The notes beneath the pieces were generated by a model. The model was not told the origin of the DNA and did not search any database. It worked only from the letters and a program-made list of their open reading frames with translations. From a virus (Duplodnaviria > Caudoviricetes), in the IMG/VR virus record IMGVR_UViG_3300017963_000281, positions 238 through 64,237 of that record: a DNA stretch of 64,000 nucleotides; one strand, 5' to 3'. Below, piece by piece: positions 9,458-26,380 of the stretch (the stretch's first letter is position 1; every line of letters begins with the position of its first letter). The position numbers and the translations under genes are program-made.

Positions 9458-10429
9458 ATGCCGACACTAAGAGAAACGAAGAGCAGGGCGAATGCGACAC
9501 TGATTCCTGGATCGGGTGTCCCTCCGGAGGAGGTGGACCTTAAGAAGCTGGAGACGGACATCTCTCCGTACCTGGTGGATCCAACGCTGGCCCAGCAGGA
9601 GGCCGATGTCGTTAAAAACAGATACGGTGGCAAGGCTATCCAGGACTCGCCAGGCGGATCTCCGCCACTGTACCAGCCTCCGCCGGAAGGTCAGCAGCAA
9701 GGGCCCAAGATGGACTTTTCCAACCGGCCGGCATACGAGCAGATCGTATTCAAGCAGCTGGGTGGAAACCCTTTTGAGGTAGACCCTGTCAACGAACTTA
9801 ACAGGGTCACCCAAGCCGAAATGCCGAATATATTTAACCAGATATTCGCGGGCCAGGTTTCCTGGGAGGACCGCGGCCGGCTGGATCCGACCCAGGCAAA
9901 GCACTTCGAAAGCGAGGTCAAGAAGTTCCGGGCCCATGTCCATGATGGTATTATATCGGACGTCAACCAAAAGATCGCTATGTACAACCAGCTGATGAAT
10001 CGGTTTGACAATGAGCGGAAATATTACGAGGCTGCCACCAAGAAGGTAGAGGCCCAGGTCAAGGAGAGGTTGAACCAGAAGCGCCAGGAACAAAAGGACC
10101 GGGTGGCCAGGTACGATCGGCTGAGCTCCGATAAGCTGCAGGTCAACAAACAGCTTATGGAGATCATGCTTAAGTACCAGGAATATGCCCAGCTATCGCC
10201 TGGCGAGCAGACTCCGGAGATGCAGGCCGTGATCCAGCAATACGAGGCCCTGATGGCAGAAAAGGCCCGCCTGGATTCCGAGCTTAAGTCGCTCAAAGGC
10301 GAGCAGCCGGAAAAGGCGCCGGCGCGCAATGCGGCCGGCAAGGAGAGAAAGGTCGTAAAAAGGAAGGTATTCCCGGATGGACGAAAAGCTGTTGAATACG
10401 ACGACGGGACGCGGGAGTGGGTGCAGTAG
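9458..10429 (+). CDS. Putative DNA ejection/internal virion protein 2 (coiled coil)
   Basis: AGGAGG RBS; Q/E/K-rich helical protein; position before the giant ORF. Confidence 0.65.
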   Translation: MPTLRETKSRANATLIPGSGVPPEEVDLKKLETDISPYLVDPTLAQQEADVVKNRYGGKAIQDSPGGSPPLYQPPPEGQQQGPKMDFSNRPAYEQIVFKQLGGNPFEVDPVNELNRVTQAEMPNIFNQIFAGQVSWEDRGRLDPTQAKHFESEVKKFRAHVHDGIISDVNQKIAMYNQLMNRFDNERKYYEAATKKVEAQVKERLNQKRQEQKDRVARYDRLSSDKLQVNKQLMEIMLKYQEYAQLSPGEQTPEMQAVIQQYEALMAEKARLDSELKSLKGEQPEKAPARNAAGKERKVVKRKVFPDGRKAVEYDDGTREWVQ

Positions 10430-10464
10430 CGATTTGCTCTACAATATGGAGTTGGAGTCTGGGA

Positions 10465-10959
10465 ATGTTTCTGGGACACTATTTAGATGTTACGAGGCAT
10501 AAGACACTCGTGTTTTGGTATTCAGTAAAATTTTGTGGATATGTCCTTTACCGGGCGCTCGTCCATGATTTAAGCAAGTACCGGGATCCTGAGAAAAGCG
10601 GGTTTTCGCTAAATCGTGATCGCCTAAAAAAGATAGCTTACAATGACAAGCAGTATGCAACCGTTCGGGAAGAGAGCCTGAAGGAGGCGATTAGCCATCA
10701 TCACAAAGTAAACAGGCATCACCCAGAATATCATAAGCGTGGTATAAGAGACATGGGCCTGATCGACTGTACCGAGATGCTGCTTGACTGGCTTGCAACT
10801 GCCAGGGCATCAAAATTTGGGGATGTATTTGTATCTATCGATAAGGGTAAAGAGCGATTTGATTTGCCAGATGAGATGGCCACCATACTTAAAAACACCA
10901 CCAAAGAGGCCAAGAATGAACGAACTCGACAGAATGTGGGACGCAGGAACAGAGGTTGA
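10465..10959 (+). CDS. HD-superfamily hydrolase (DUF5662-like)
   Basis: H...HDLSK...HHHKVNRHHPEY...DCTEMLLDW motif series; GGAG RBS; AT-richer than neighbours. Confidence 0.8.
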   Translation: MFLGHYLDVTRHKTLVFWYSVKFCGYVLYRALVHDLSKYRDPEKSGFSLNRDRLKKIAYNDKQYATVREESLKEAISHHHKVNRHHPEYHKRGIRDMGLIDCTEMLLDWLATARASKFGDVFVSIDKGKERFDLPDEMATILKNTTKEAKNERTRQNVGRRNRG

Positions 10960-13900
10960 CCAGAACTGGGATCCAGTAGGAGGCGGAAACACGTTTGATG
11001 AGTCAGGCTTCCAGAACTGGTATCAGAATTGGGCCGACAAGACCGGCATCAATCCGGATCCGGATGACCCACTGCACAAATATGATTACCGGGCAGCCTA
11101 CTCTGCCGGCGCCGAGCCCCAGCTGGCCGACGATGGCGCATATCACTGGCCGAGCGAGCACAAGGCTGATGATCACCCGAATAGGTTTGTCGACGGAATG
11201 GATACCAAGACCGGCACGCCGGCGCCCATGGGCGGGGCAGGCCTGGTGCCTGACGACCTCTGGGAACAGGGGATAGATGCAGATCAAAGCTTCCAGCCGA
11301 CCGGGGCAGCCAAAGCCCAGCAGCTCGAGGAGATGGGCACGGCCGGCCGCCTCTGGGAAGCCGGAAAGGCTGCCGGCAGCCAGGCGATTACCCTATTTGC
11401 TGATATCCTCCCGGGCACGATCTACCGAGGCCTGCGTGGTGGCGATGACGAGCTCCATGAGACCTGGTTGGACCGCCAGATATCGCAGAACGAAGCCGAG
11501 CGCGAACGCCGGCGGAACCTGACGCCTGAGGAACGGGAGGTGACCGCCTTCCGGATTCCGTTTACCGATATCGATGTCAAATTTGGTGACTTCGAGGACA
11601 TCGCCGACAACCTTGGATATTCCCTGGGCAACGCGATCGCCATGGCCGGGACCAGGGCAGCCACGGGAGCGGTATTGAGCCAGATCCCGTACGTCGGCAA
11701 GGTCGGCCAGAAGATCATCGCCCCTACCGTTGGGGCCGTTGGGGCCACCGCTTTTACCGCTCGGGTCAGCAAGGACCAGTTCATCGATGACCTCAAAAAA
11801 GAGTGGATGAAGCAGCATCAGGGCAAGCTGTTGACTCCGGAGCTCCAGCAGCAATGGAAAGAATTCTACGAGCAGGCCGCCTCGGATGCGACGATATACG
11901 GTCTCTGGGAAGCGGTACCGGAGACAGTCAGCAATATGGTGGGCTGGGGCATCGTCAAGATGGGGTCCGGCAAGACCGCCCAAATGGCAGTGTCCGGTAT
12001 TAAGAAGAGGCTGACCAACAAGGTCGGCAAAATGATCGCCAAGAAGATGGGGATCCCGGTGGCCAAGTTGGGTGCTATGTGGACTGAGGAGCTGATCACC
12101 GAGATGATCACGACCAAAAAGCAGTCCGAAATTGAGCATGCCAGAGGCCTCCGGGATAAACCGCTGGGATGGATCGAAGCCCTCAAAGAGGTGGCGCCCG
12201 GTGTCCTGCTGGCCACTCCGTTGATGGCTGCCGGGTTCAAAGGCGCCCAGAAGGTGGCCGAAGGTGCCAGCAATCTCGGTGTAAAAGAGGTCAGCGAGGA
12301 CGAGCTCGTGGATCTTGATGACCAGCGAAAGCCGCCTCCATTGCCCACGGCCGGCGCCGAGGAGATCGCCGCGAGTCCGCTGGTGCAGAAATTAAAAGAG
12401 GACTATTCCGCCGGCATCGTCACCGATGAGGATATCGCCCAGATGCGTGAGGGCATGGACGCGAAACATCCGCTTTACCAGGCCCTGGATACGATCACCG
12501 GGGCCGAGGTGGCAGAGGGCGAGCTCCAGGAGGAGCAGCTCACCGAGGGCCAGGCCAAGGCCGAGGAGGCCCTGATATCGGCAATGAGGAAACAATTTCC
12601 TGAGGGCGAGATCGCTGCTCAGGTTGTAGGAATGCCCAGCAGCAAGGACCTGCAGTCAGTACAATCGGTTGGGGAAGCGCTCGGCGTTAACATCGTTGTC
12701 TTTCGGGGGGAAAGAGAGGCCGATGCCTTCAATGGTCTATACCATGAGGGCACGATCTTTATCAATGAGAACGCCGAGCGCCCCTACCTTACCACCCTGG
12801 GCCATGAGAGCTGGCACAAAATCGAGACCGAGCACCAGGACCTGGCCAAGCAGCTCATCGATTCGATGAAGGTCGAGGATCTCGGGTTTGAGAACTATCT
12901 AAACGAGCTGAACAAGTCCAGGGTCGACAAGGGTCTGGAGGAGATCGGCATCGATGACGCCCTTGGAATGGAGGAGCTCCGAGCTGATTTTGTTGGCGAA
13001 CAGTTTGTGAGGCCTGAGTTCTGGCAGAAGCTGTCCGAGAAAAATCCGGAGGCAGCCAAGAGTCTGGCCCAGGTCGTTAAGGATATCATCGATAAGATCC
13101 GGGCATACCTGCAGGGTCAGAAGGCGGTTCCGGCCTCAGCCTTTAAGGATCTCAACGGTGTCCAGGATGCCCTGGCCTCTGTCTATACCGAATTCGCCAG
13201 GCGGGAGAAGGGTGTCGTCGATGAGACGGTCCAGGAGGTTAAGACCAAGAAGCCCTCAAACGTAACAAAAGAGGCTCCATCCGTAACAAAAGAGCCCTCA
13301 AACGTAACAAAAGAGGCTCCATCCGTAACAAAAGAGGCCTCAAACGTAACAAAAGAGAAGCCCGAAACCAAGGGCCCGAAGCCAAGCCTGAAGGAAGGTG
13401 GTGTCAAAAAGGTCAGACCGGGGCTATACCGAGCGAAATCAGGTGGCGTCGAATATGTCGTCGAGAAGCGGCCATCGGATGAATACGAAAAATCTAAACC
13501 GTGGGTGCTCTCCGAGATTGTAGCCGGTAAAACGGAGCCCATAACTCGAGCTCGGACGGCTAAAGAGGCCATTGCCCAAATTGGCATGACTCCATTTCCT
13601 GAGAAGCCAGACAAGTCCAAGTTCAGCGTCAAGAGCCCGGAGTTCAAGAAGTGGTTCAAAGAATCAAAGGTCGTAGATGAGACGGGCAAGCCCCTGGTTG
13701 TTTACCATGGAACCAAAGATCCTTATGTGACCAGGTTTTCTCATGCAATGGGCGGGACTGGGGTGGTCGGGGCTGCTAAATCCGGCGCCTTCTTTTTTAC
13801 GTCAGAGCGCGATAATGCCGAATATTACGCTGACTATACTGACTTGCCAGACTTCTCGGAGTATAGTGAACAGGAAATAGATGACCTGCGCGAATCCATC

Positions 13901-16900
13901 CAGGTGTATGGAGAGGGAAACGAATGGTATAACCTCGTCCAAGATGAGAACGGAGCAGACATATTCAATCAAGGACCATTCGACACTTTAGATGCGGCGG
14001 AGGAAGCAGCGGAGAAAACGCTCGATGGCGCAGGGTTTACCGACCAAGACCCTTTTGTCAAAGAGGTATATCTTTCGATCCAGAATCCCTTTGAGACCGA
14101 TGACCTCAAGTACCGCCAGGCAGATGAGATCAAAAAGATAAAAGAGAAGGGCTACGACGGAATTATCATCCGCGACGTCGTAGACGGCCTATATGAATCT
14201 GATATTTATATCGCTTTCGAGCCCAACCAGATTAAGTCTTCAACCGGCAACGTAGGCACATGGGATGCCGGTAATGAAGACATCCGCTTTAGCCTCAAGG
14301 GCCCGGATGAGGATCCTGTCGTGATCCCGGAGGCCCTCGAGGAATTCGAGGACTATGAGGATGCGGAACCCACCTATCGTGGCGACGAGTTGGCCAGAGC
14401 GATCAAATACCTGCATGCCCTGGAGCTAAAATACAGCGCCTATGATTACGCGAATCCCAAGGATGAGCTCGTCGAGAAGTACCAGGCCGAGACAGAGGAC
14501 GAGATCAACGAAAAAGCCGACGAGGTCATCGATGTCCTGAACGAGGTATATGACCACTGGCTGGAGCGCCATGAAAGCGCTGAAGGCTGGTTCAATCAGT
14601 TCTTCGACCCGGACGAGGAACTGATGCTTTATTCTGAGCCCACCATGGCCTTTACGGATGGGGAGGTTGGATATATCAAGGCAGGCAATACATGGACGGT
14701 AGATGTCAGGGATGAGGTCCTGAAGGCTGTCGAAGAAGAGCACGGCATGCCCGGGATTCCGGAAGACATGGACGACGTTTTTGAAGAGCTCGAGGATTAC
14801 GGCGAAGACGTCGATGATATGCGCCAGCAGTATGAGGACGGAGAGATCGAGGAGTGGGACATCAAGGAGCGCCTGGAGCAATTCCGTTGGGAGGATTATT
14901 CCTATGCCGATAAAATCATTGAGCCCACCAGCCAGAGTATCGGGGAAGCGCTCGACGCCAATGGATGGTACAGCCCGATCGGCCAAACCATCAGACAGGT
15001 ACTTGAGACGAAAGGGTATGAGGCCTGGCGATCCAACTGGGGAAGCGAGCTCACCGACGCCGAGGAGCGAATTAGGGAGCAGCGCGACCGCCTGGAGGGG
15101 GCCGAGAGCGTCCGGGAAAAGATGTCCGCGATTACCTGGGCCCTGAATGAGAGCCATGTTTATGGGACCATGTCGGAGCATATGGACATCTGGGAAAAAG
15201 ATCTCAACGAGATCAACGAGTTGGGCGACAGGATCCAAAAATTTGAAGATATTCTCAAAGACGAATACAGGTTTAAGCCGAAACAAAAAGAGATGCCGCC
15301 CCTGGTGCAATCATCGATGTTCACCCGGTTAGGCATGACGCTGCCGAAGTTTAGCGTCAAACAGCGCAAAAAATTCCATGAGATCTCGAAGGCAATGAAC
15401 GCCGGCTTCGCTCCAATGCCGAAGCGCAAGAAGCTCACGGGGGGCAAGCGCCTGGGCGCCGTCCTGAAGCGGATTCCGGAGATGACCAGGGAACAGCGCC
15501 AGGAGGCAGCCCGGATTGTATATACCGATGAGTTCTCGGCCGACGAGAAAGCAAGCCTAATCGAAATGATAATGGAGGCAACCGATGCGATCCGGATGCC
15601 CTCGAGGGGGGCGCTGGTTGCATCAGTCAAACGCGCCAAGCCACGGAAGGTTGTCGCCGGCTTCAAGTCTCAGGCCCAGATCTCGAAAGAAAAGCTGGAA
15701 AAGCTGCAGGCCAAGGGCGACATCGACTTTGAGGACCAGGACGTTCTGAATGCCGTTATCGCGCTGTCTGATGATAAGGTTAGCGGATTCAAGGAAGCCC
15801 GGGTCGGCGATGCCCGGATGAATACGGTCGTCAGGGCAATCGAGTTTGTGGAGCAGAACGAAGGCGTTCCGGCCGTGTACGTCGAAATGGACCTGAAGAA
15901 CCTGGGCGGGATCAATTCCGCCTTTGGGCATAGTGAGGCGAATAAGGTATTCCGTACTCAGGCCGACATCGTCAAGAAGGCCATGGGCGCCCTGGACGCC
16001 GACGTCGACCTGTTCCGTCACGGTGGCGACGAGATGTCCGCCGTTGTTGTCGGGGCAGATCCGGCTACCGTGGACTCCGCCATGACGGAGGCGGTCGATG
16101 CGATACAGAGGTGGGCATCGAGGACCAAGGCGCCGGCCGGCAAGGCGCTGACCGACATACCTCACCCTAAATATAAGGGTGATAAGTCCAAGGCTGGGGT
16201 CGGAATTGTATTTTCAACAACCGAAATCCATCCCGGGGCCGTACCTGAGATCGTATTTCAGTCGGCCGACACGGTGTTGGAACAACGAAAGGTGGAGGGA
16301 GCTGATGAGTTCTTACAGCAGGTTAGGGAGGCTCGGACTGGTGCATCTGATAGACGACAAGGACCAGCTGAAAGACGCGCTAAAGAAGGCGCGAAAGAAG
16401 ATAGAGCGCGAGATGGAGCGAAGGCGCGTGGCGTTTCAGAAAAACAATCCAAGGATAAGGTAGGTCGATTTTCTGTCAAGAAAGAAGACAGGCCCATCAG
16501 AAACTATGCGCGGATTGGCAGAAGGCGCGATGACGGGAAACTTATGAAGGACGTCGAAGGCCGCAAAGCTCGCAAGATGACCAAAAAAGAATATCGGGAG
16601 ATCAAGGACAGGCTCAAACAAGAAGCTGAGACGGAAGCGTATTTCACCTCCAGGAATCATCCCGGCAACCTGGCCCAGCGGTATAGCCTTAAGCGGTCCA
16701 TGATCGACGACGCCGAGGACCGTGGACTGCTGAACGCGGATGGGCTTAGGGTAGCCGACTTGGCAGAGCGCTGGGCAGAGTTTGACCGGCTGATCAAGCT
16801 GGGAGGCGCCGGGAGGCCTCAGCACAACGCTTATAATATCAATCAGCAGATAAAGAAAATCAGGGGCCTCAGAAAAAAGATCGAGGCGCTGGAAAAAGAG

Positions 16901-19900: not shown

Positions 19901-22900
19901 GCCAGGAATTGGTACTGGGATAAAGGCCCTGGGGCCCAGATGCTCCCGGATGCTCCGTTCAAGAAAGATTGGCCGCTGCTGGCCTTCAAGCGGATGATCC
20001 GACACGCCGTCGACAACAACTATGATTCGGTTGGGTGGACCACCGGGGGGCAGCAGGCGGATCGTTATAACCTCCGGAAATTTATATCGGCTTTGCACTG
20101 GAAAGTCGTAGGTAAAAACCCCGAGGACAATACATTCATCTATCAAATAAATGCCACGCGGGTTGACCAGGACGGCCGAGTGGAGGACTTTGGAACAAAA
20201 ACAGTCGACGAGCTCGTCGACCTGGTGGGTAAAGAGATGGCCGACCGGATCGTGCAGGCCTCCGGAAAGGGCCAGGTTACAAGGTATCACGGCCGGGTCA
20301 ACGAATACAAAGCCACATCAAATAAAGAGACCGAGGAACAGGCATGGGCGCAGCTCGAGAAGTGGAAGGTGAACAATAAATATACCCCTCACGATAAGTT
20401 TGATGTCAACACGGTCACGCTGCCGGCGCACGGGACGATCGATGGCGAAAATCTGGAGATCGGCGGAAGTGGCATGAAACAGTTCTATGACAAGATCCTG
20501 CCGAACGCCGTCAAAAGATACTTTGGCAAAAAGGCCTGGGGCAAGCCGAAGCTGAAGCCGGCAAAGATCTATACGGATCCCAATCCTCGATACCTGGTGG
20601 TAGGCCGCCGGTCCAGCGAGGACCCCTGGGGCGAATACTCGAGGTCCTATGCGACCGAGGGCACCGCCAAGGCCGAAATGACTTTCCTTAACAAATCCGA
20701 GGACGGATGGGAATTTAAGGTCATCCCGGATCCTGACCGGCTCGAAGAGATCTGGAGCATGGAGATCACTCCAGAAATGCGCGAAAAGGTGGCCAACGAA
20801 GGCCTCCCGCTGTTCTCCGTTAAGGCCGGCCCGATTTGGTACAGCCAGATGGCCGATGTTCTGGCCACCAAGCTGCCGAACAGGGGAACGCCTGAGCAGT
20901 TCGAGCGAACGATCAGGGCTTTCGCAGCCAAGGGCGAGTTCAAGGAAGAGGAGCTGCAGTGGTCAGGCCTGGAAGCCTGGCTCGATGAGCAGGATGCGAA
21001 GGCGAAGGTGTCCAGGCGGGACATCCTGACATACCTGAAGAGCAACAGCATCCGACTCCAGGAGACGCAGCACGCTGAGGCTGGTAAGATTTTTGGCTAT
21101 GGCATCAATGAGGTCGATAGGTCTGAAGAGTGGTATGTGGAACAGGGAGACGAGGAAGATGAGTGGTTTGTCATGGACGACGACGGCCAAATAATCACAA
21201 GGTTACCAAGCCTAAAAGAGGCAGAAGATTACATCGATGACGCTGAATTCGGGTACCAGGTCTATGATTTAGACTCCAGCGACGTAGTCCAAACCTTCGA
21301 AACCCGAGGTGGCGCCGAGTGGTTCATAGAGAATATGGGCGACGGTAGCCAGTGGTGGGATAGCGACAACCTACGAGAAGCGTCCGAAATCATAGAGCAG
21401 CTCGAGCATGATGGCTACGAGGTTCACGCAGAGCCCGACATCGAGACCGGAGAGCCGATCCCCAACAGGGTTACCTGGGATTCCGGATCGAAGGAGGTCG
21501 AATTCCCTATGATGTTGATCGAGGACGACGAGATCGACGCTCCGGATGAGGATATAGCTGCAATGCGCCGGCTGGATGAGTTGATCAGGATGGAGGGGTC
21601 TCGGGCGGCGTCATCGGCTAAATATCCAAGCTATGTCCAGCCTGGTGGTGAGAACTACCGTGAGCTGTTGCTGCAGATGCCTGAGATCATAACTCCCGAC
21701 ATGATGCGATCCATCATGCCGATGGAAAGCACGATGGTTGCTGATGGTACCGACGTCGAATTGATTGTCCGCGGCAAGGTGATGAACTGGCGCGATGCTA
21801 TCCGGGAATTCCTGGACGATTCTGAGATCAACGCAGACCTCCGCATCAAGACGCTTGAGAAACTCAGGGAGGATGTCGGCAACTGGCGCTGGAAACAGTT
21901 TATCAAGGACAACCTGGTTCCCCAGATCAGGGTGGCCGCCGGCGCCACAAGCGTTGGACCGGATCCTTTCCGAGTCAGCCACTGGGACGAGGACAATGTC
22001 CTGGCCCATGTACGCTTCGACGAGCGTCGTGATGCCGAGGGTGTCCGGACCCTGCATATCGCCGAGATCCAGAGCGACTGGCACCAGAAGGGGCGGAAGG
22101 AGGGATACAGGGACGAGTCCAATCAGGTCTTTAGAATAAAGTTTGCTAACGGTGACACCTACAATACGTTCGACACCAGAGAAGAGGCCGAAAAAGTTGT
22201 TGAATCCCTGAACAAGGATGAATCCTGGGAGCCGGGTCTGCGCGGCAGATTTTATGTCGACAAAGAGGCAGAGAATGCCAAAGGCGTCCCAGACGCTCCT
22301 TTCAAAAAGACCTGGCCCATCCTGGCCATCAAGCGCATGGTCCGTTTCGCAGCGGAGAACGGGTTCGATCAGATCACCTGGGATCCTGGCCAGGTCCAGG
22401 CCGACCGGTATGATCTATCAACAAGGATTTCGCGGATAGTCTGGCTCGAGCATGCCTCAACGCTCAAGGCCTATAATCATAGTGGCGAAGAGGTGATAAG
22501 CGAAATCTCCACGAGAGAGAAGCTGCCAGACTACATAGGGAAAGAGGCGGCCGACAAGTTGCTGTCGACAGAACCCAACGAGTTTAAATATGGCCCAACT
22601 CAGCGCAAGGGCGTTGAGTACATGCTCGAAGGCGAGGACATCAAGGTCGGGCACAAGGGAATGAAAGGCTTCTATGACAAGATCATGGTCAAAGAGGTCA
22701 ATAAATTCTTCAACAAACAGGCCTGGGGCAACGCCAAAGTCGCGGTCACCAAGATTGATACGACAACGACAAATCAGCTGACGGCGAAGCGGAGGTATGT
22801 CGGCCCTGAGTTGACGCCGGAGGAAATATTCGCCCTGGCCCGGACTGGTAATTTTAACGCGACGGTTACCGGGCAGCTGAATGGAATGGCCCACGACATC

Positions 22901-25900
22901 AACGCCGAGCTGACCTTCCAAGACGCTGCCGACAGAACGTCCGAGGCAACGGCCGAGGCCCTTGGCGGCCGGCTCGAGATGGTATCCTCTGAATCCGAGG
23001 TCTGGAGCCTGCCGATCACTCCGGAGATGAAAGCCCGGGCCCTACAGCAGGGTATGCCGATGTTCAGTGTCAAGAAAATGAACCCGGTTGCCCAGGACTA
23101 CCTGGAAGCGCTCCAGGCGGCATATCCGGCAGCGTTCGAGCCGGCGCCCTATGACATGGCTGAGGATCCGTTCGAGGACCTGGACGAGGAGATCCGGGAG
23201 CGCATGGAGGCGGCCAAGGGCATCCCGATGCCCAGGTTTGTCGATTGGCTCAAGACCCAGGGTAAGGAGATCTGGTGGTCAGCCCGCCGGCATCGTCCCT
23301 TCCTGGATCCCCAGGACCAGGCCGAGCTCGCCAACGTGCTCCGGATCCACCAGGAGGTCCCGGAAAATTCCAAACGCCGCGCTATGCAGGTCCTCCAGGC
23401 TCTGGTGGCCGGCATGAAGCCGAAACACTACGAGACCTTTACCATGGCCCTGGTGATGGACGACATGGTCAAGGATATCGATTCCGGACTGTTATCCGGC
23501 AAAGAGGAGCTGCCGTTCGGGTTCACCGAGCAGCAGGCCAGGGCCTATCGTCGCCGGATCAATGAGATGGTCAATTCCAGTCCGATTGTCAAGGACGCCC
23601 TCCGCCGGCGCCAGGCCTTTCAAAAGAAGCTGAAACAGGCCCTGGTGCGAGCGGATCTGCTTCCTGAAGCGGTCCTCGAGGATGATAGGTACTTCCACCA
23701 TCAGGTGCTCGAGTACAGGGCAGCTGAGGCGCTTGGTGAGGCCTACGGTGGCCTGGGAGTGTCCTCCAGAGACGTCAGGCTGAAACGGAAAGGGTGGCAG
23801 CGGGCCCGGACCGGATCCGTCAAAGACTATAATATCGATTATGCTGAGGCTGAATTCGAGGTCATCTCCCAGGGCCTGGCTCAGCTCGAGACCAAGGCGA
23901 CCATGGACCGGATCAAGGGCCTGGTCGACGAGACGCCCGGTCTTAAAATGCAGGCCAAGTCGCTGAATATCCAACATTTGTATGAGGAAGAGGCCAAGCG
24001 CCTTACCCAGACGGACCAGTCCGGCCACATCTGGACGGCTGCCGAGGTCCGGGAACAGCAGGACATCCTGTCACCGTTCAAACAGAAAATGGCCATGGGC
24101 CTCTCATGGCTCGGCCGGCTGGCCAGCAAGGGTGACCTGGGCGGCGGGTCTCAGGATTTCAGCGACGTGATCGAGACCCTCCAGGAATGGCAGCGCGAAA
24201 TCGCGATCGAAAAGCAGGAGGCCAAGGAGGACGGCCGCAAACCTTATCCGATACCTTTTCCGTTTGATGAGCTCGGGTCCAGATTCTGGGCCTTCCTGAA
24301 CCATGTTATGCGGGAGGACCTGGACGGGGCGCCGGCAGCCGGGACCATATTCAAGGCGATCCGGGAGCGCAACCAGTTCATTAAGGACTACCTGGGCGAT
24401 AAATTCCTTTCCGCGGTGGATCTCAAGCCGGCCGACCATGTACTCTGGAAGCCGGCGCCGGGATCCTCCTGGTACAAGGCCTGGACAATGACCGACAAGC
24501 TAATACAGGCCGTCCAGGAAGGTGAGCAGGTCATAGGCAAGGCCGAGCTTGAGAAGGCCCACCAGATCCTGGCCAGGGGTAAAGACGTCGAGTGGATCGT
24601 TCCGGCCGACGTCGCCAAAACCTTGGACGGCTATGACATAGTCCTCGAGGACCACAAGTTGAGCAAGGCCTCCAGGGCGATAATGACTGGGTGGAAACAA
24701 TGGATCTTGATCAATCCGTTTCGGGTGATCAAGTACAACCTTAACAATATGTCAGGCGACCTCGACATCGCGCTTGCCTATGATCCGAAGATTGCGCTTA
24801 AGTACATGCCGGCCGCAATTAAAGACCTCTGGTCTGACTTCCGGCTCAAAAAGCAGAGCCCGGAGCTCAAGGCCGAGATCGATCGGGCCTACACCCTGGG
24901 CGTCCTGGGGTCCGGATGGAGCGTCCAGGAGGTGGCCGATGTCAACAAGCAGCTGGCCTTCGACAAACAAATGGACGCTCTGCAGGGGATCAAGCCGAAT
25001 CTGATTAAGAGAGGGTGGCGGTCCCTATCGGCATACACCAGCTACCGCGAGAACATGCTGCGCCTGGCTTCTTACCGGTACTTTTTGGATGAGCTCAGGG
25101 CCGGGAAAGAGGTTTACGGCGCCAGCAATAAAAAAGAGGTAGACGGAATCGAGGACATCGAGGAGAAAGCCGCTAAGCTGTCCCGAGACCTGATCGGAGA
25201 TTATGGTAATATTACCCACGCCGGTCAGTGGCTGCGTCGGCATATGATTCCATTTTATGCCTGGATGGAGGTCAACGCGCCCAGGTACGTTCGCCTGATA
25301 CGAAACCTGCCTCACGAGGACAAGGGCCGCGGAAGGCTGGGCGGAGTGATAGCCGCAAAGGTCGCGTGGAAGGCTACTAAGCTGGGGCTTAAAATGAGCG
25401 CCATCTATGGCCTGGTAACGCTTTGGAACCATACCTTTTTCGGCGACGAGGAGGACGAGCTCGGCGAATCCCAGCGCCGGCAGCTGCACCTGATACTGGG
25501 CCGCCGGGATGATGGATCGATAATCACCCTAAGGGTCCAGGGCGCCCTGTCCGATGCCCTGGCCTGGTTCGGTGGCGAGGACCTGCCGAGCGACATCGGC
25601 GATGTCGTAAAAGGCAAGGTCTCGATATGGGAAAAGGCCAAAGAGGCCGCCCTGGCGCCGGTGATCAAGCTCATTGGCGGTGTCCGTCCCGACGTCAAGG
25701 CCTTTTCGGAGCTTCTGGGCGGTCGGACCTTTTATCCGGATCCGTTCAACCCAAGGCCTATCCGGGACAAACTTGAGCAGATCGCCAGGTCGTTTTCCCT
25801 CAATGGCGTTTATCGCTGGATCGCAGGGAAACCAAAGCGAGGTGACACCTGGAGCGCTCAGCTGGCCAACGATATTCTGGCACTCGGTACCTATACGTCC

Positions 25901-26380
25901 GATCCTGGCGAGTCGGCATATTACGACACGCTCGCGAGGGTTTATGATTTCATGGAAAAGAACGGCCGGGAGCGGGCCTCCGGAGTCCCAACGACCAGGT
26001 CCAACGCCCTGTATTATTACAAGCAGGCGCTAAAGTATGGCGATCTGAAGGCTGCCGAGAAATATCTCAAGAAATATTATGAGCTCGGTGGCATCGATAC
26101 CAACATCACCCAGAGCATCAAACGAGCCGCTCCCCTGGCGCCGTTGCCGGCGGATTGGCGAGGCCTGTTCCTCAGGTCCCTGACTCCGGATGAGCGGGCC
26201 CGGTATGACCTGGCCATGCGCTGGTATCGCCGCACCTATGTCCAGGGCCAGGGCAAGGTCAGCGTTGATCGATCCGAAATAAAACGGCCGCCGCGGATCC
26301 CGGTTATATCCCAGCCGGCCGGCGGAAAGAAACCTTTAACCCTGAGGCAAGCAGCCCAGCAAAAGAGAGGAGCTGAGTAA
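10916..26380 (+). CDS. Giant (5154 aa) polyvalent ejection protein: metallopeptidase, ART-like, acidic, GGDEF, Fe-S/GP88-like, 2x EIQSDW and LPD38-like domains
   Basis: Uninterrupted ORF; ATG at 10916 with GAGG RBS; domain motifs listed separately; last gene of the ejection cassette. Confidence 0.9.
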   Translation: MNELDRMWDAGTEVDQNWDPVGGGNTFDESGFQNWYQNWADKTGINPDPDDPLHKYDYRAAYSAGAEPQLADDGAYHWPSEHKADDHPNRFVDGMDTKTGTPAPMGGAGLVPDDLWEQGIDADQSFQPTGAAKAQQLEEMGTAGRLWEAGKAAGSQAITLFADILPGTIYRGLRGGDDELHETWLDRQISQNEAERERRRNLTPEEREVTAFRIPFTDIDVKFGDFEDIADNLGYSLGNAIAMAGTRAATGAVLSQIPYVGKVGQKIIAPTVGAVGATAFTARVSKDQFIDDLKKEWMKQHQGKLLTPELQQQWKEFYEQAASDATIYGLWEAVPETVSNMVGWGIVKMGSGKTAQMAVSGIKKRLTNKVGKMIAKKMGIPVAKLGAMWTEELITEMITTKKQSEIEHARGLRDKPLGWIEALKEVAPGVLLATPLMAAGFKGAQKVAEGASNLGVKEVSEDELVDLDDQRKPPPLPTAGAEEIAASPLVQKLKEDYSAGIVTDEDIAQMREGMDAKHPLYQALDTITGAEVAEGELQEEQLTEGQAKAEEALISAMRKQFPEGEIAAQVVGMPSSKDLQSVQSVGEALGVNIVVFRGEREADAFNGLYHEGTIFINENAERPYLTTLGHESWHKIETEHQDLAKQLIDSMKVEDLGFENYLNELNKSRVDKGLEEIGIDDALGMEELRADFVGEQFVRPEFWQKLSEKNPEAAKSLAQVVKDIIDKIRAYLQGQKAVPASAFKDLNGVQDALASVYTEFARREKGVVDETVQEVKTKKPSNVTKEAPSVTKEPSNVTKEAPSVTKEASNVTKEKPETKGPKPSLKEGGVKKVRPGLYRAKSGGVEYVVEKRPSDEYEKSKPWVLSEIVAGKTEPITRARTAKEAIAQIGMTPFPEKPDKSKFSVKSPEFKKWFKESKVVDETGKPLVVYHGTKDPYVTRFSHAMGGTGVVGAAKSGAFFFTSERDNAEYYADYTDLPDFSEYSEQEIDDLRESIQVYGEGNEWYNLVQDENGADIFNQGPFDTLDAAEEAAEKTLDGAGFTDQDPFVKEVYLSIQNPFETDDLKYRQADEIKKIKEKGYDGIIIRDVVDGLYESDIYIAFEPNQIKSSTGNVGTWDAGNEDIRFSLKGPDEDPVVIPEALEEFEDYEDAEPTYRGDELARAIKYLHALELKYSAYDYANPKDELVEKYQAETEDEINEKADEVIDVLNEVYDHWLERHESAEGWFNQFFDPDEELMLYSEPTMAFTDGEVGYIKAGNTWTVDVRDEVLKAVEEEHGMPGIPEDMDDVFEELEDYGEDVDDMRQQYEDGEIEEWDIKERLEQFRWEDYSYADKIIEPTSQSIGEALDANGWYSPIGQTIRQVLETKGYEAWRSNWGSELTDAEERIREQRDRLEGAESVREKMSAITWALNESHVYGTMSEHMDIWEKDLNEINELGDRIQKFEDILKDEYRFKPKQKEMPPLVQSSMFTRLGMTLPKFSVKQRKKFHEISKAMNAGFAPMPKRKKLTGGKRLGAVLKRIPEMTREQRQEAARIVYTDEFSADEKASLIEMIMEATDAIRMPSRGALVASVKRAKPRKVVAGFKSQAQISKEKLEKLQAKGDIDFEDQDVLNAVIALSDDKVSGFKEARVGDARMNTVVRAIEFVEQNEGVPAVYVEMDLKNLGGINSAFGHSEANKVFRTQADIVKKAMGALDADVDLFRHGGDEMSAVVVGADPATVDSAMTEAVDAIQRWASRTKAPAGKALTDIPHPKYKGDKSKAGVGIVFSTTEIHPGAVPEIVFQSADTVLEQRKVEGADEFLQQVREARTGASDRRQGPAERRAKEGAKEDRARDGAKARGVSEKQSKDKVGRFSVKKEDRPIRNYARIGRRRDDGKLMKDVEGRKARKMTKKEYREIKDRLKQEAETEAYFTSRNHPGNLAQRYSLKRSMIDDAEDRGLLNADGLRVADLAERWAEFDRLIKLGGAGRPQHNAYNINQQIKKIRGLRKKIEALEKESGVQILNNGKLRMHPMELKMVPSNVDTKFIKKGTLKPLYSGFFRTFINEYFDNMPNEERENFRKSIVKGVERTYKAGARGLVISGVGKSDDYRISSALRKANKTVAALNFNQQCPMFVIGGHGCYLDGCYVSGLAMNGQGVQFYRSAMYLGEILQLREDQIAMLNNVGGLRINGMGDTQKEDLDQWRDAVRHAHMRGLKLKIITKQDATMWIMDKLVKEGVPGARKIVIQPTVDPYWIEVKHDNLPGSAVDTLQIYKAAARGTQASLEAAADMYAEAGREARIFNGKLYRKYGYSWDRIKEISKKYPHLKIQPRLVVSTPLEIAESALKTPKAIQTWMHAALRPGMYSDIEGGTLGEDVEALNFDGRIRVDKINGEWRLLAQGPKGDIIGHEGYAFTKTEKFIKDNYTPRQADRIFRVLQGQLEQTPSALCCQIGASADACNDCTSHCHQGSWHTGKRLARIAEAGGKIITNVVKNATIYNPTWKASVKRSKWYSQAERVLDQKLPGSGSPANMRQAIEGYIRKGDVKAEEIEWSGVLDWIDEYQEMKELEWAEAQKAEGEFSKEEDELYTKYLEGILTHEESTKAIEDLRARTRKEAKKIKAKITKAEVLEYFRQNQTEIKDVLYEEEAAGDERILVEPVDFPSQGDYMGVDATEVEYQLEVLRDEYPDEDEDYLAQLAQERAEENAQYEYTDSEYGYRIIETMFMGTGEDYTVYDPDHNIIGNFDSWDEAEDHVENHALDRFGTWEIEDETHYSQYKLEGGKKYAELLMVLPDQRKAKIDRLINRVKERLGKPDLWTESVIPQMTPAELKEYEALVEQPRRKGRYESSHWQSDPNVLVHVRYDDRETYDGENMLFIEEIQSDWHQEGRKDGYASKPKIRRVGKVKVWTQKDFKKAHRSWPLDSMMDVQDTPIDLMKAATDEEQQRLTEAIVHNQGKLSDDAPVYTVVGDDGKIKIANMISRSLAEKEARKYEIVIDEETGAVAIGNMGTHIRFKSKKEARNWYWDKGPGAQMLPDAPFKKDWPLLAFKRMIRHAVDNNYDSVGWTTGGQQADRYNLRKFISALHWKVVGKNPEDNTFIYQINATRVDQDGRVEDFGTKTVDELVDLVGKEMADRIVQASGKGQVTRYHGRVNEYKATSNKETEEQAWAQLEKWKVNNKYTPHDKFDVNTVTLPAHGTIDGENLEIGGSGMKQFYDKILPNAVKRYFGKKAWGKPKLKPAKIYTDPNPRYLVVGRRSSEDPWGEYSRSYATEGTAKAEMTFLNKSEDGWEFKVIPDPDRLEEIWSMEITPEMREKVANEGLPLFSVKAGPIWYSQMADVLATKLPNRGTPEQFERTIRAFAAKGEFKEEELQWSGLEAWLDEQDAKAKVSRRDILTYLKSNSIRLQETQHAEAGKIFGYGINEVDRSEEWYVEQGDEEDEWFVMDDDGQIITRLPSLKEAEDYIDDAEFGYQVYDLDSSDVVQTFETRGGAEWFIENMGDGSQWWDSDNLREASEIIEQLEHDGYEVHAEPDIETGEPIPNRVTWDSGSKEVEFPMMLIEDDEIDAPDEDIAAMRRLDELIRMEGSRAASSAKYPSYVQPGGENYRELLLQMPEIITPDMMRSIMPMESTMVADGTDVELIVRGKVMNWRDAIREFLDDSEINADLRIKTLEKLREDVGNWRWKQFIKDNLVPQIRVAAGATSVGPDPFRVSHWDEDNVLAHVRFDERRDAEGVRTLHIAEIQSDWHQKGRKEGYRDESNQVFRIKFANGDTYNTFDTREEAEKVVESLNKDESWEPGLRGRFYVDKEAENAKGVPDAPFKKTWPILAIKRMVRFAAENGFDQITWDPGQVQADRYDLSTRISRIVWLEHASTLKAYNHSGEEVISEISTREKLPDYIGKEAADKLLSTEPNEFKYGPTQRKGVEYMLEGEDIKVGHKGMKGFYDKIMVKEVNKFFNKQAWGNAKVAVTKIDTTTTNQLTAKRRYVGPELTPEEIFALARTGNFNATVTGQLNGMAHDINAELTFQDAADRTSEATAEALGGRLEMVSSESEVWSLPITPEMKARALQQGMPMFSVKKMNPVAQDYLEALQAAYPAAFEPAPYDMAEDPFEDLDEEIRERMEAAKGIPMPRFVDWLKTQGKEIWWSARRHRPFLDPQDQAELANVLRIHQEVPENSKRRAMQVLQALVAGMKPKHYETFTMALVMDDMVKDIDSGLLSGKEELPFGFTEQQARAYRRRINEMVNSSPIVKDALRRRQAFQKKLKQALVRADLLPEAVLEDDRYFHHQVLEYRAAEALGEAYGGLGVSSRDVRLKRKGWQRARTGSVKDYNIDYAEAEFEVISQGLAQLETKATMDRIKGLVDETPGLKMQAKSLNIQHLYEEEAKRLTQTDQSGHIWTAAEVREQQDILSPFKQKMAMGLSWLGRLASKGDLGGGSQDFSDVIETLQEWQREIAIEKQEAKEDGRKPYPIPFPFDELGSRFWAFLNHVMREDLDGAPAAGTIFKAIRERNQFIKDYLGDKFLSAVDLKPADHVLWKPAPGSSWYKAWTMTDKLIQAVQEGEQVIGKAELEKAHQILARGKDVEWIVPADVAKTLDGYDIVLEDHKLSKASRAIMTGWKQWILINPFRVIKYNLNNMSGDLDIALAYDPKIALKYMPAAIKDLWSDFRLKKQSPELKAEIDRAYTLGVLGSGWSVQEVADVNKQLAFDKQMDALQGIKPNLIKRGWRSLSAYTSYRENMLRLASYRYFLDELRAGKEVYGASNKKEVDGIEDIEEKAAKLSRDLIGDYGNITHAGQWLRRHMIPFYAWMEVNAPRYVRLIRNLPHEDKGRGRLGGVIAAKVAWKATKLGLKMSAIYGLVTLWNHTFFGDEEDELGESQRRQLHLILGRRDDGSIITLRVQGALSDALAWFGGEDLPSDIGDVVKGKVSIWEKAKEAALAPVIKLIGGVRPDVKAFSELLGGRTFYPDPFNPRPIRDKLEQIARSFSLNGVYRWIAGKPKRGDTWSAQLANDILALGTYTSDPGESAYYDTLARVYDFMEKNGRERASGVPTTRSNALYYYKQALKYGDLKAAEKYLKKYYELGGIDTNITQSIKRAAPLAPLPADWRGLFLRSLTPDERARYDLAMRWYRRTYVQGQGKVSVDRSEIKRPPRIPVISQPAGGKKPLTLRQAAQQKRGAE
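12600..13200 (+). other. Zincin metallopeptidase (MPTase-like) domain of the giant protein
   Basis: NGLY...IFIN...TTLGHESWH (HExxH at 12803-12817) and downstream EELRAD; boundaries approximate. Confidence 0.8.
13253..13357 (+). repeat. Five tandem 21-bp coding repeats (PSNVTKE/APSVTKE linker)
   Basis: CCCTCAAACGTAACAAAAGAG alternating with GCTCCATCCGTAACAAAAGAG. Confidence 0.95.
13634..14287 (+). other. ADP-ribosyltransferase-like module (ART-PolyVal type)
   Basis: FKKWFKESKVVDETGKPLVVYHGT...FFFTS...AEYYA...VYLSIQNP...GYDGII...IAFEPNQIKS...GTWD..NEDIRFS. Confidence 0.85.
15632..16468 (+). other. GGDEF-type nucleotide cyclase module (GGDEM variant)
   Basis: EMDLKNLGGINSAFGHSEANKVF...LFRHGGDEMSAVV (GGDEM at 16022-16036)...GVGIVFS...VFQSADTVL. 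Confidence 0.85.
16305..16463 (+). CDS. Overprinted 52-aa basic helical protein in the +1 frame inside the giant ORF
   Basis: GGAGG 6 nt before ATG; hand-counted GC3 about 36/52 in the nested frame versus 18/53 in the giant frame; TAG just before the FSVK boundary. Confidence 0.6.
   Translation: MSSYSRLGRLGLVHLIDDKDQLKDALKKARKKIEREMERRRVAFQKNNPRIR
16694..18355 (+). other. Fe-S / radical-SAM-like (GP88-like) module
   Basis: Cx9Cx4C (CPMFVIGGHGCYLDGCY), LRINGMGD, KIITK and C-terminal CC...CNDCTSHC. Confidence 0.55.
18368..20812 (+). other. EIQSDW domain, copy 1
   Basis: WYSQ...EEIEWSG...YAELL...SHW...NVLVHVRYDDR...EEIQSDWHQ...PDAPFKK.W...QADRY...GMKQFYDKI...ITPEM. Confidence 0.8.
20825..23062 (+). 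other. EIQSDW domain, copy 2
   Basis: Same ordered motif blocks as copy 1 with different insertions. Confidence 0.8.
23075..26380 (+). other. C-terminal helical ejection core (LPD38-like)
   Basis: ENMLRLASY...AAKLSRDLIGDYG...MIPFYAW pattern typical of C-termini of large phage ejection proteins. Confidence 0.6.

Follow-up and report, generated by a model that had tools for sequence, protein, structure and literature searches.

A four-residue peptide, [F/Y/A]S[V/L]K, recurs along a giant phage protein and is, with high confidence, a real and selected junction peptide that stands at nearly every joint between the protein's modules. Comparison with relatives leads us to take this tag as a marker of the places where modules are exchanged, as specific to one clade of such proteins, and as travelling with one type of zincin-like domain, which either forms part of the giant protein or has a 'carrier' gene of its own. 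We put at about 0.4 the probability that the tags are cut, most likely by the carrier's putative metallopeptidase, which would free the cargo enzymes.

Autoprocessing of polyvalent proteins by their MPTase domains was proposed in 2017 (Iyer, Burroughs, Anand, de Souza and Aravind, PMC5512222), and such cutting has since stood as a proposal without defined sites. The sequence-only reading of this DNA knew of no cleavage code for these proteins, and our literature search, which took in the available text of Iyer et al., likewise found none published; whereas that text yielded no junction or cleavage motif, the protein described here has a four-residue tag at its joints. For a family that counts at least 93 giants (191 relatives in IMG/VR), the tag offers exact, testable places: nine joints that bear it, a candidate enzyme and its putative catalytic Glu, natural variants in which enzyme and giant are separate genes, and natural dialects in which K becomes R. 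Tags that are cut would define the mature injected products, explain the free exchange of cargo and give a rule for annotating ORFs of this kind; uncut, they would be a new handling signal, repeated along the largest virion proteins known. In both cases the tag serves in practice to mark module borders where domain databases are blind.

The giant protein and its nine tags

The window analysed here is a stretch of 64,000 nucleotides from the record of a complete virus, an uncultured phage (64,237 bp with terminal repeats). Positions 10916-26380 of the plus strand translate as a single open frame of 5,154 aa, with an ATG start at 10916 and AAGAGG just before it. The gene lies on the same strand, downstream of large ORFs of unknown family, and the same phage encodes a portal, a major head protein and a large terminase. 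Its product is a phage-type polyvalent protein in the sense of Iyer et al. (2017), in which unrelated effector domains (ART-PolyVal, GGDEF, two GNAT-like modules and a zincin-like domain) share one chain. As with the polyvalent proteins in the available text of Iyer et al. (PMC5512222), unrelated effectors (ART, GGDEF and a putative LPD-type domain) are joined to an HExxH domain in one giant chain that is encoded among the late or virion genes of a portal-terminase phage. By megablast the ORF matched none of 50,697 phage records, and a cluster look-up returned no informative names. The earlier label of 'giant ejection protein' is plausible by gene position and by the virion-proteomics precedent of phi24B gp47; in the accessible part of its preprint this 2,811-aa polyvalent protein combines LPD5, LPD1 and LPD38 with a metallopeptidase domain, and its authors, who detected it by virion proteomics, propose that it acts as an ejection protein (bioRxiv 10.64898/2026.04.10.717836).

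The architecture is that of a carrier, formed by a constant N-terminal part and a constant C-terminal domain, with eight exchangeable cargo segments between them: ART, GGDEF-like, Cys-rich, two GNAT-like EIQSDW modules and three segments without a family. A very widespread domain of about 80 aa (aa 23-105; 10982..11230, + strand, as for all features below) lies at the N-terminus; among the 150 homologue matches listed, many cover only query residues 23-105 or so, at 55-74% identity and in proteins of 78 to 4,213 aa. This domain had no Pfam match, and an Atlas search with the N-terminal 96 aa gave nothing usable. It is followed by a Gly/Ala-rich hydrophobic segment (aa 135-500; 11318..12415) that is kept in relatives and from which, by tblastn, aa 140-427 matched a 'DarB-like / PLxRFG domain' protein of Klebsiella phage LASTA.

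At the other end, the constant C-terminal domain (about 1,100 aa; 23075..26377) is common to 93 giants at 28-83% identity. The 191 IMG/VR relatives came from an alignment-based search; a single-sequence scan of IMG/VR with the same domain found no confirmed relative, so an alignment was required. With an Atlas language-model feature score of 0.97 to PF18857 clusters and no Pfam match at E <= 1, the domain is LPD38-like by language-model features only, a putative likeness to phi24B gp47 with its LPD38.

A regular-expression search of the 5,154-aa protein found exactly nine tags, with the residues and at the positions previously claimed. This compares with 0.39 expected from composition; FSVK alone was observed five times against 0.035 expected, and [FY]S[VLI][KR] seven times against 0.42 (Poisson p = 3e-7). 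An unbiased scan for 3-of-4 patterns across four giants (P0002, P0152, P0039 and P0157) ranked SVK, FS.K and FSV at the top. The conservation is at the protein level, as had been proposed: codons differ from site to site, all four codon strings quoted earlier are present, and none of the 20 largest of at least 60 direct-repeat families covers a tag. Just before the tag there is often Pro-Leu or a basic residue, and just after it a basic one. Scanning all six frames of the window (stop-to-stop frames of at least 80 aa) gave 14 matches, nine of them in the giant ORF; those outside were four A-type matches and a single F/Y-type match, YSVK in the upstream DUF5662 ORF (10417-10959). The same scan found no F/Y-type tag in the capsid, the portal or any other structural ORF of the window, and both constant ends of the giant protein are free of internal tags.

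Module borders and module exchange

Along the chain, the first tag, FSVK at aa 903 (13622..13633), precedes the ART-PolyVal ADP-ribosyltransferase module (aa 921-1115; 13676..14260; Pfam PF18760, E = 2e-17). ART alignments elsewhere begin at aa 902-910, and the equivalent stretch in the relative P0152 reads 'FSLK SPEFKKWF'. The second, FSLK at aa 1125 (14288..14299), lies in the conserved ART tail ...DIRFSLK and has eleven HSP ends within -10/+13 aa; the DIR[FY]S tail also occurs behind ART in unrelated giants. The third, FSVK at aa 1479 (15350..15361), is matched by FSVK at the corresponding place in P0152. The fourth, ASVK at aa 1569 (15620..15631), comes from the regular expression and is the least certain site: it falls inside a block co-inherited by P0152 and P0013, and P0152 there has ASIK. 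A-type variants of the tag are real elsewhere.

Between aa 1569 and the fifth tag, FSVK at aa 1852 (16469..16480), sits a GGDEF-like nucleotide cyclase module (aa 1650-1795; 15863..16300) with a Pfam PF00990 match above cut-off (E = 8e-6) and an NCBIfam match below its cut-off; P0152 homology stops at aa 1849. At the sixth, YSLK at aa 1923 (16682..16693), homology to P0157 and P0159 starts at aa 1918/1919, which is 4-5 aa before their own FSVR/FSLR. The Cys-rich module that follows (aa 1927-2480; 16694..18355) is common to P0152, P0157 and P0159 and has no Pfam family at E <= 1. The last three tags bound the two EIQSDW modules, which have a putative GNAT-like fold with inserts: ASVK at aa 2481 (18356..18367), with ten HSP ends nearby, opens copy 1 (18368..20812); FSVK at aa 3300 (20813..20824), with twenty-four, separates it from its paralogue, copy 2 (20825..23062); and FSVK at aa 4050 (23063..23074), placed by the regular expression and by comparison of relatives' junctions, precedes the C-terminal domain. 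ASVK-2481 occupies the position equivalent to that of FSVK-3300 in the paralogous copy.

The view that tags flank every recognisable cargo domain thus holds for ART, GGDEF and both EIQSDW modules, but some sub-domain borders (about aa 2537, 2870, 3010, 3685 and 3950) have no tag, and ASVK-1569 lies within its co-inherited block. The GGDEF-to-RadC border of P0152 is also tagless.

Module swapping at the tags, another earlier suggestion, was borne out by homology breakpoints that pile up there. For BLAST HSPs within aa 850-4110, 54 of 293 end-points fell within 5 aa of a tag, compared to 11.0 for random positions (p about 0.009); with site 4050 excluded the count was 50 of 214 against 7.4, and none of 20,000 random sets reached as high. 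Homology with P0157, P0159 and P0152 opens 1-5 aa ahead of the tag in each of the two proteins compared, behind upstream modules that are not related to each other, and at the junction before the C-terminal domain the tag is retained behind differing upstream modules. In P0152 and P0154, tandem tags lie 10-13 aa apart, which indicates that the tag stands alone in linkers. A composition-based disorder proxy around the nine sites, using TOP-IDP values, was not significant (p = 0.16).

Polymorphic toxins carry demarcation motifs (VENN, DPXGL and similar) that separate the delivery part from the toxin modules. The tag resembles these in being a short peptide at a boundary between constant and exchangeable parts that coincides with recombination break-points. 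In a polymorphic toxin, however, the motif occurs once, ahead of the only C-terminal toxin module, whereas up to nine tags run along the array of the phage protein.

Homology between the two EIQSDW copies runs over their full length, and each copy starts just after one tag and ends on the next, as the sequence-only reading had observed. These paralogues are only 29% identical, and the tag is nevertheless kept exactly. The AF2 model of copy 2 has a mean pLDDT of only 62, and with this low-confidence model the wide VIA-align list was filled by GNAT-fold acetyltransferases (best 8g8k_A with Z 10.0, rmsd 3.4 and 152 aligned; further Elp3 with Z 9.7, NatD with Z 9.1 and TacT3 with Z 9.1), the alignments extending to model residues 750-770; Foldseek returned nothing at E <= 0.001. 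Both flanking tags lie at a drop in confidence, with residues 1-22 and 767-776 below a pLDDT of 50. Moderate confidence ends with the Phe of FSVK-4050, and from SVK onward pLDDT is below 50.

Stand-alone homologues number 564; among the 120 listed, 106 are closed by G-x-P-L-F-[S/A] with nothing downstream to release, and in 77 of these the tail after it is at most 40 aa. After the Phe they continue with A/S/Q/T and then A/G, not with [VL]K. As Phe-Ser/Ala ends most of these listed homologues, the Phe-Ser part of the tag is also a fold terminus. This bears on an explanation in which the tag has no function of its own and is a terminal cap handed down within a few module families (with DIRFS as the ART tail and PLFS as the GNAT-like tail), spread together with modules and linkers by duplication and shuffling. 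The EIQSDW copies would, as paralogues, carry the tag along; the ART and EIQSDW tails are conserved far beyond the near clade; and the site logo shows mostly a G-[ML]-P-L context, with Pro at position -2 in 26 of 60 sites. We nevertheless regard a functionless tag as very improbable: at least five of the nine window sites (903, 1479, 1852, 1923 and 2481) do not stand behind an ART or EIQSDW module, the stand-alone proteins lack the [VL]K half, divergent paralogues keep the tag intact, and the full four-residue form is clade-specific and shifts in step.

Clade, dialect and the zincin-like domain

The nearest clade keeps the tag at borders although the neighbouring modules differ. Giants of this clade have 4-7 F/Y-type sites each, compared to 0.3-0.5 expected, and in IMG/VR loci nine near-clade proteins have 21 sites against 2.4 expected, whereas 55 distant proteins have 5 against 12.7. 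The giants of Pseudoalteromonas phage Y7 (4,675 aa) and Shewanella phage Y11 (3,372 aa) share only ART and have no FS[VL]K, so the tag is not universal. Of the 67 distant proteins that were usable, 23 have a looser form, [FY][SA]..[KR], ahead of the C-terminal domain (9.0 expected). A search of the distant clade for another multi-site tag found none, and k-mer enrichment pooled over homologues returned only conserved domain motifs. Candidate tags DIL, D.LR and D.IR in the distant giants turned out to be ordinary helices.

The fourth position of the tag changes in concert within a protein. It is K at all nine window sites, R at four of four sites in P0158 (Fisher p = 0.0014) and R at five of six in L011 (p = 0.002), and the overall K/R usage of L011 equals that of the window. 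We count this shift in step across sites as a sign of one common reader.

The HExxH...E domain (12575..13237), described from its invariant residues and an AF2 model as gluzincin-like or MPTase-type, lies in the same protein as the tags, as had been noted. The description of its HExxH as just upstream of the first tag does not hold, since HESWH (12803-12817; aa 630-634) ends 269 residues before site 903. The two are separated in part by a low-complexity spacer, a tandem 21-nt repeat (13244..13369; direct-repeat family D1) encoding (P/A)S(N/V)VTKE units. The copy number of this repeat differs between the window and the near-identical database copy P0002, which has an identical N-terminus and a 14-aa difference in the repeat region, between aa 800 and 815.

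In an alignment of ten sequences the putative ligands and catalytic residue H101, E102, H105 and E158 are all invariant. The AF2 model (pLDDT 77) has a β-sheet followed by an HExxH helix (residues 94-110), with E158 in a second helix (157-167). The top ten Foldseek rows were M48 zinc peptidases, all weak matches with none reaching E <= 0.001 (best 3c37_B, E = 0.025, prob 0.54; ZMPSTE24, E = 0.04-0.13), and one of the ten alignment members matched Peptidase_M91 (E = 5e-4). Pfam gave nothing at E <= 1 for the window domain, a PDB profile search with the alignment returned no peptidase and only chance matches to designed proteins, and VIA-align matched only a helical hairpin (rows covering residues 168-243). 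These weak matches suggest a putative zincin fold and peptidase identity, not confirmed at significance.

All seven near-clade phages have a zincin of the window type. It is in cis in the window and in G005, and in the other five of the seven near relatives (G001-G004 and G006) it is a separate ORF of 806-1,378 aa; here, compared to the polyvalent proteins of Iyer et al., carrier and cargo can be told apart. Among ten distant phage records the window-type zincin was present in two, at 27-28% identity, and was not found in the other eight; this contrast between near and far relatives is confounded with descent. We also considered whether the giants P0157, P0159 and P0156, which have no HExxH, refute a link to the peptidase, and rejected this objection, as the phage of P0157 has the zincin in a separate 1,337-aa ORF. 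The same split of zincin and giant occurs in four further records.

Cleavage and its alternatives

In the reading that we favor, at the probability of about 0.4 given above, one common factor would read all tags, most likely the carrier's putative metallopeptidase. Acting in cis or in trans, either once the protein is packaged or once it has reached the host, this peptidase would sever the chain at the tags and so release the cargo enzymes from both constant ends. Zincins tend to favor a hydrophobic residue following the scissile bond, which would fit cutting before the Phe or before Val/Leu. Co-prediction of the zincin (residues 25-245) with a 40-residue FSVK-1852 peptide, run without controls, gave no answer (score 0.00) and is neutral on binding. 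Of the earlier interpretation as a whole, the protein-level tag, the module borders, the swapping and the HExxH domain in cis stood, and cleavage is a candidate only. A simple cleavage code is weakened because Phe-Ser/Ala also ends stand-alone homologues, because distant relatives have a looser motif and the zincin in only two of ten cases, and because the peptidase fold comes from weak matches.

We tentatively consider a broader version, somewhat less probable, in which the giants are true polyproteins with lineage-private cleavage codes that co-evolve with their own peptidase, a phage counterpart of MARTX toxins. The carrier, consisting of the N-terminal zincin part and the LPD38-like C-terminal domain, would bring its own metallopeptidase, which after delivery would cut at [F/Y/A]S[V/L][K/R] tags and so set free within the host an ADP-ribosyltransferase, a nucleotide cyclase, a pair of GNAT-like acyltransferases and other enzymes. 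With the code co-evolving with the peptidase, any tag-flanked module could plug in. MARTX toxins hold effector arrays between conserved ends, and a built-in cysteine protease frees the effectors by cutting the linkers. Constant delivery ends, an exchangeable effector array and a putative protease in the same chain make the two alike in logic; unlike the phage protein, MARTX is a bacterial secreted toxin with a cysteine protease that is activated by a host small molecule and with sites known from experiment.

The tag could instead be cut by another protease, of head maturation or of the host, with the zincin acting on host targets or the cell wall; we judge this improbable. Known head-maturation codes include L/I-x-E in T4 and S/A/G-x-E in phiKZ-like phages, and like these trim sites of packaged or ejected proteins in large phages, the tag is a short peptide code, although cutting here is only inferred. 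Such head-maturation codes serve a dedicated prohead protease and occur in capsid proteins as well; in the window, capsid and portal are tagless, the other structural ORFs have no F/Y-type tag, and the only F/Y-type tag outside the giant is the YSVK of the DUF5662 ORF. No head protease was recognised among the ORFs scanned, and the ORF between portal and capsid had no PHROG match and only sub-threshold Pfam matches. In favor of such a protease, some distant relatives that lack the window-type zincin still have the aromatic motif, and head proteases with short site codes are known in other phages (SPN3US; available text of PMC10052503). The phi24B authors, in the accessible part of their preprint, assign the gp47 metallopeptidase to cell-wall degradation, suggesting that it attacks peptidoglycan, and report no processing or junction tag there (bioRxiv 10.64898/2026.04.10.717836).

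It is also conceivable, though unlikely, that the tag is an uncut short linear motif, a docking or handling signal in head packing or tail threading that leaves the chain whole, with the capsid interior, the portal, a chaperone or the constant C-terminal domain as possible partners, of phage or host origin. No less well than cleavage, such a motif would explain the enrichment, the junction positions and the concerted shifts from K to R; it would also account for the Phe-Ser/Ala cap in stand-alone homologues that have nothing to release. MPTase-bearing proteins that are transferred uncut are described in the available text of Iyer et al. (2017, PMC5512222), namely N4 virion RNA polymerase, ArdC and TraC1, and phi24B gp47 was detected in virions at no reported processing in what is accessible of its preprint (2,811 aa; bioRxiv 10.64898/2026.04.10.717836). 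Against an uncut motif, the tag is missing from both constant ends and from the portal and capsid proteins, and no partner was identified. For the tandem tags, and for the association of the tag with one zincin type, a protease is at least as good an explanation.

Carrier, cargo and junction tag

The virus record is complete in IMG/VR (64,237 bp, direct terminal repeats), and the genome encodes a large terminase, a portal and a major head protein. The giant ORF (window 10916-26380, + strand) is a single open frame of 5,154 aa occupying about a quarter of the genome. Upstream on the same strand is a run of large ORFs without an assigned family, the replication genes are encoded on the other strand, and a DUF5662 ORF (window 10417-10959; Pfam E = 6e-28) overlaps the start of the giant gene.

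The nine [F/Y/A]S[V/L]K tags described in the sequence-only reading (aa 903, 1125, 1479, 1569, 1852, 1923, 2481, 3300 and 4050) were recovered with exactly the coordinates and residues it had given, and the codons differ among sites as it had said. Its view that the tag is not a DNA repeat also held, as the sites lie outside all repeat families examined (the 20 largest listed of at least 60), and a check for enrichment gave nine sites against 0.39 predicted from composition. FSVK alone occurs five times against 0.035 expected from composition, and [FY]S[VLI][KR] seven times against 0.42 (Poisson probability 3e-7). Scanning the window in all six frames, we found seven F/Y-form tags in the giant ORF and a single one elsewhere, a YSVK in the DUF5662 ORF that overlaps its start; none occurred in the capsid, portal or remaining ORFs.

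Searched exhaustively with HMMER, aa 1-906 returned 1,706 proteins at E <= 0.001, and the matches divide this region into three pieces: an N-terminal domain of ~80 aa (aa 23-105, window 10982-11230), a hydrophobic Gly/Ala-rich segment (aa 135-500) and an HExxH domain (aa ~545-800), all on the + strand. Among the matches listed, considerably more than 100 proteins, from 78 to 4,213 aa long, contain the ~80-aa domain at 55-74% identity, at the N-terminus, in the interior or close to the C-terminus; searches of Pfam, PHROG and Atlas gave no match to it. H-E-x-x-H is invariant across ten aligned HExxH-domain sequences, as is a Glu 53 residues downstream, and one member matches Peptidase_M91. An AF2 model (pLDDT 77) places four strands before the HExxH helix, and its ten best Foldseek rows are M48 zinc peptidases, at E = 0.025-0.13 only. 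Because VIA-align, a PDB profile search and Pfam did not confirm a zincin fold, we name this candidate peptidase, its fold unconfirmed, gluzincin-like by motif only. Directly after it lies a tandem 21-nt repeat (window 13244-13369) encoding five 7-aa units, (P/A)S(N/V)VTKE. P0002, a near-identical database copy of the giant protein, has two units (14 aa) fewer, and the copy number is therefore polymorphic.

The C-terminal ~1,100 aa are common to 93 giants (3,027-7,521 aa) at 28-83% identity and have 191 relatives in IMG/VR; a language model scored this domain 0.97 for LPD38-like, while Pfam gave no LPD38 match. The cargo of those 93 giants is diverse, including RadC/JAB, ART, GGDEF, methylase-helicase, strawberry-notch, zeta toxin, radical SAM, 2H and GNAT domains. 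Given such constant ends around widely differing cargo, the protein is a carrier whose tag-free N- and C-terminal parts enclose eight cargo segments.

Tags at module joints

We compared the giant protein by BLAST with 238 other proteins and counted the end-points of HSPs in the region aa 850-4110. Of 293 end-points, 54 fell within 5 aa of a tag, where random site sets gave 11.0 (p about 0.009); without the pile at the C-terminal domain the count was 50 of 214 versus 7.4, and none of 20,000 random sets was as high. Seven of the nine tags have at least one end-point inside 5 aa, with one apiece at sites 1479 and 1852 and none near site 1569. Pairwise maps placed the start of homology to the giants P0157 and P0159 at aa 1918/1919, 4-5 residues ahead of YSLK-1923 and of their own FSVR/FSLR, and that to P0152 at aa 902, one residue ahead of FSVK-903 and of its own FSLK-1310. 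The modules upstream of these joints were unrelated to the window's in every case.

The claim that tags flank the recognisable cargo domains stood for ART-PolyVal (aa 921-1115; Pfam E = 2e-17) and GGDEF (aa 1650-1795; E = 8e-6), each with a tag on either side, and for EIQSDW; it did not extend to several sub-domain borders, which lack a tag, as does the GGDEF-to-RadC border of P0152. A Cys-rich module of 554 aa (window 16694-18355, aa 1927-2480), for which Pfam gave no family even at E <= 1, is shared with P0152, P0157 and P0159, with tags flanking it in every case. Both EIQSDW copies, which are paralogues 29% identical, are bounded by tags as reported, each starting after one and ending '...ITPEM...G-[LM]-P-[LM]-FSVK'.

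Composition and dialects of the tag

EIQSDW copy 2 with both flanks was modeled with AF2 from a 14-sequence alignment (mean pLDDT 62). Confidence is below 50 at residues 1-22 (upstream tag and linker), high in the strand-helix 735-760, moderate in G-M-P-M-F (762-766) and again below 50 from S767 to 776. The VIA-align list is full of GNAT-fold acetyltransferases (best Z 10.0, rmsd 3.4, 152 aligned), including NatD, Elp3 and TacT/AtaT toxins, with AcrVA5 at Z 7.5, and the alignments extend to model residues 750-770. In the model, the EIQSDW module (window 18368-23062, aa 2485-4049, two copies; no Pfam family) thus resembles an acyltransferase of the GNAT fold that carries large inserts, and the confidence drop together with the reach of the GNAT alignments suggests that Phe ends the fold and S-V-K opens the linker.

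The module has 564 homologous proteins of 414-1,320 aa, many on 40-66-kb contigs. Among 120 listed homologues, 106 keep the '...G-x-P-L-F' cap, 77 with at most 40 residues beyond it; directly behind Phe comes A (31), S (28), Q (20) or T (15), and then A/G instead of [VL]K. Because these stand-alone proteins keep the Phe cap without [VL]K, the tag is a composite of an aromatic-small cap, which some modules possess in any case, and a [VL]-[KR] extension. That the tag is merely an inherited cap is hardly likely. The full four-residue tag also stands alone in linkers at sites 903, 1479, 1852 and 1923, and relatives carry tandem full tags 10-13 aa apart. Short C-terminal tails of the stand-alone EIQSDW proteins (P0241-P0360) often contain another linear motif, P-[VI]-[DE]-x-[DN]-P-[FY], which is in the last 40 aa of 21 of 120 and the first 60 aa of two, is duplicated at times, and could be a targeting peptide.

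Across the 93 giants, [FY]S[VLI][KR] occurs 77 times against 35.5 expected, with 59 giants having none and the excess falling in the nearest clade (4-7 sites each in P0002, P0152, P0003, P0157, P0005, P0039, P0154, P0155 and P0159). Nine proteins from near-clade IMG/VR loci hold 21 sites versus 2.4 expected, whereas in 55 distant relatives (L010-L089) [FY]S[VLIM][KR] is rarer than chance upstream of the C-terminal domain (5 versus 12.7). When all 3-of-4 residue patterns were scanned without bias, SVK, FS.K or FSV came top in four near-clade proteins, and nothing comparable emerged in distant ones. Beyond the near clade there is a looser aromatic-small form: DIR[FY]S follows ART in unrelated giants. 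It also does so in Dolichospermum phage Dfl-JY45, where F[SA]R[ST] surrounds the EIQSDW modules. Of 67 usable distant proteins, 23 have [FY][SA]..[KR] ahead of the C-terminal domain where 9.0 are expected, a test inflated by kinship.

Ahead of its ART, the carrier of G001 (the phage of P0157) reads '...MK-ASVK-TDTPEFKKWFGKS', where the window has '...SK-FSVK-SPEFKKWFKES'; on this comparison Ala at position 1 is a genuine variant. Position 4 is K at 9/9 sites in the window, R at 4/4 in the homologue P0158 and R at 5/6 in L011, an IMG/VR relative (p = 0.0014 and 0.002), with overall K/R usage equal to the window's in L011 and R-rich in P0158. By this sequence evidence, position 4 changes in step across the sites of a protein. 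Together, the data establish that the junction peptide is selected, clade-specific and read alike at every joint of a protein.

A candidate reader of the tag

Neither polyvalent proteins nor the idea of their autoprocessing is new, MPTase autoprocessing having been proposed in general terms in the main text of Iyer et al. (PMC5512222). For this known class, the literature searched, including the main texts of PMC5512222 and the phi24B preprint, gave no junction code. The most economical reader would be the carrier's putative metallopeptidase, to which we assign a probability of about 0.4. It would recognise the tags at all joints, and the giant ORF would then be a polyprotein cut at them. A docking or handling motif that is never cut, possible if somewhat doubtful, can explain most of these facts as well; it agrees with the precedents in the main text of PMC5512222, in which MPTase-bearing proteins travel whole, and with the cap kept in stand-alone EIQSDW proteins. 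Cutting by some other protease is quite unlikely.

Several near-clade giants have tags and no HExxH. A window-type zincin is found in 7/7 near-clade phages, counting the window and G001; of the five further records, one has it in cis and four have it on an ORF of its own (806-1,378 aa; L091-L094). Distant records yielded a copy, 27-28% identical, in two of ten and none in eight, seven of which are at least 86% complete (CheckV). This co-occurrence, confounded with descent, favours a link between tag and peptidase. G001 encodes the entire N-terminal carrier together with its zincin as a 1,337-aa ORF of its own (L009 941-4954, - strand), which lies ~6.6 kb upstream of the giant and itself bears tags. 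Overall, the N-terminal carrier (80-aa domain, hydrophobic segment and zincin) is its own gene, not fused to the giant, in five of the seven near-clade phages. For cleavage by the carrier's peptidase, this split gene offers a candidate natural setting for action in trans.
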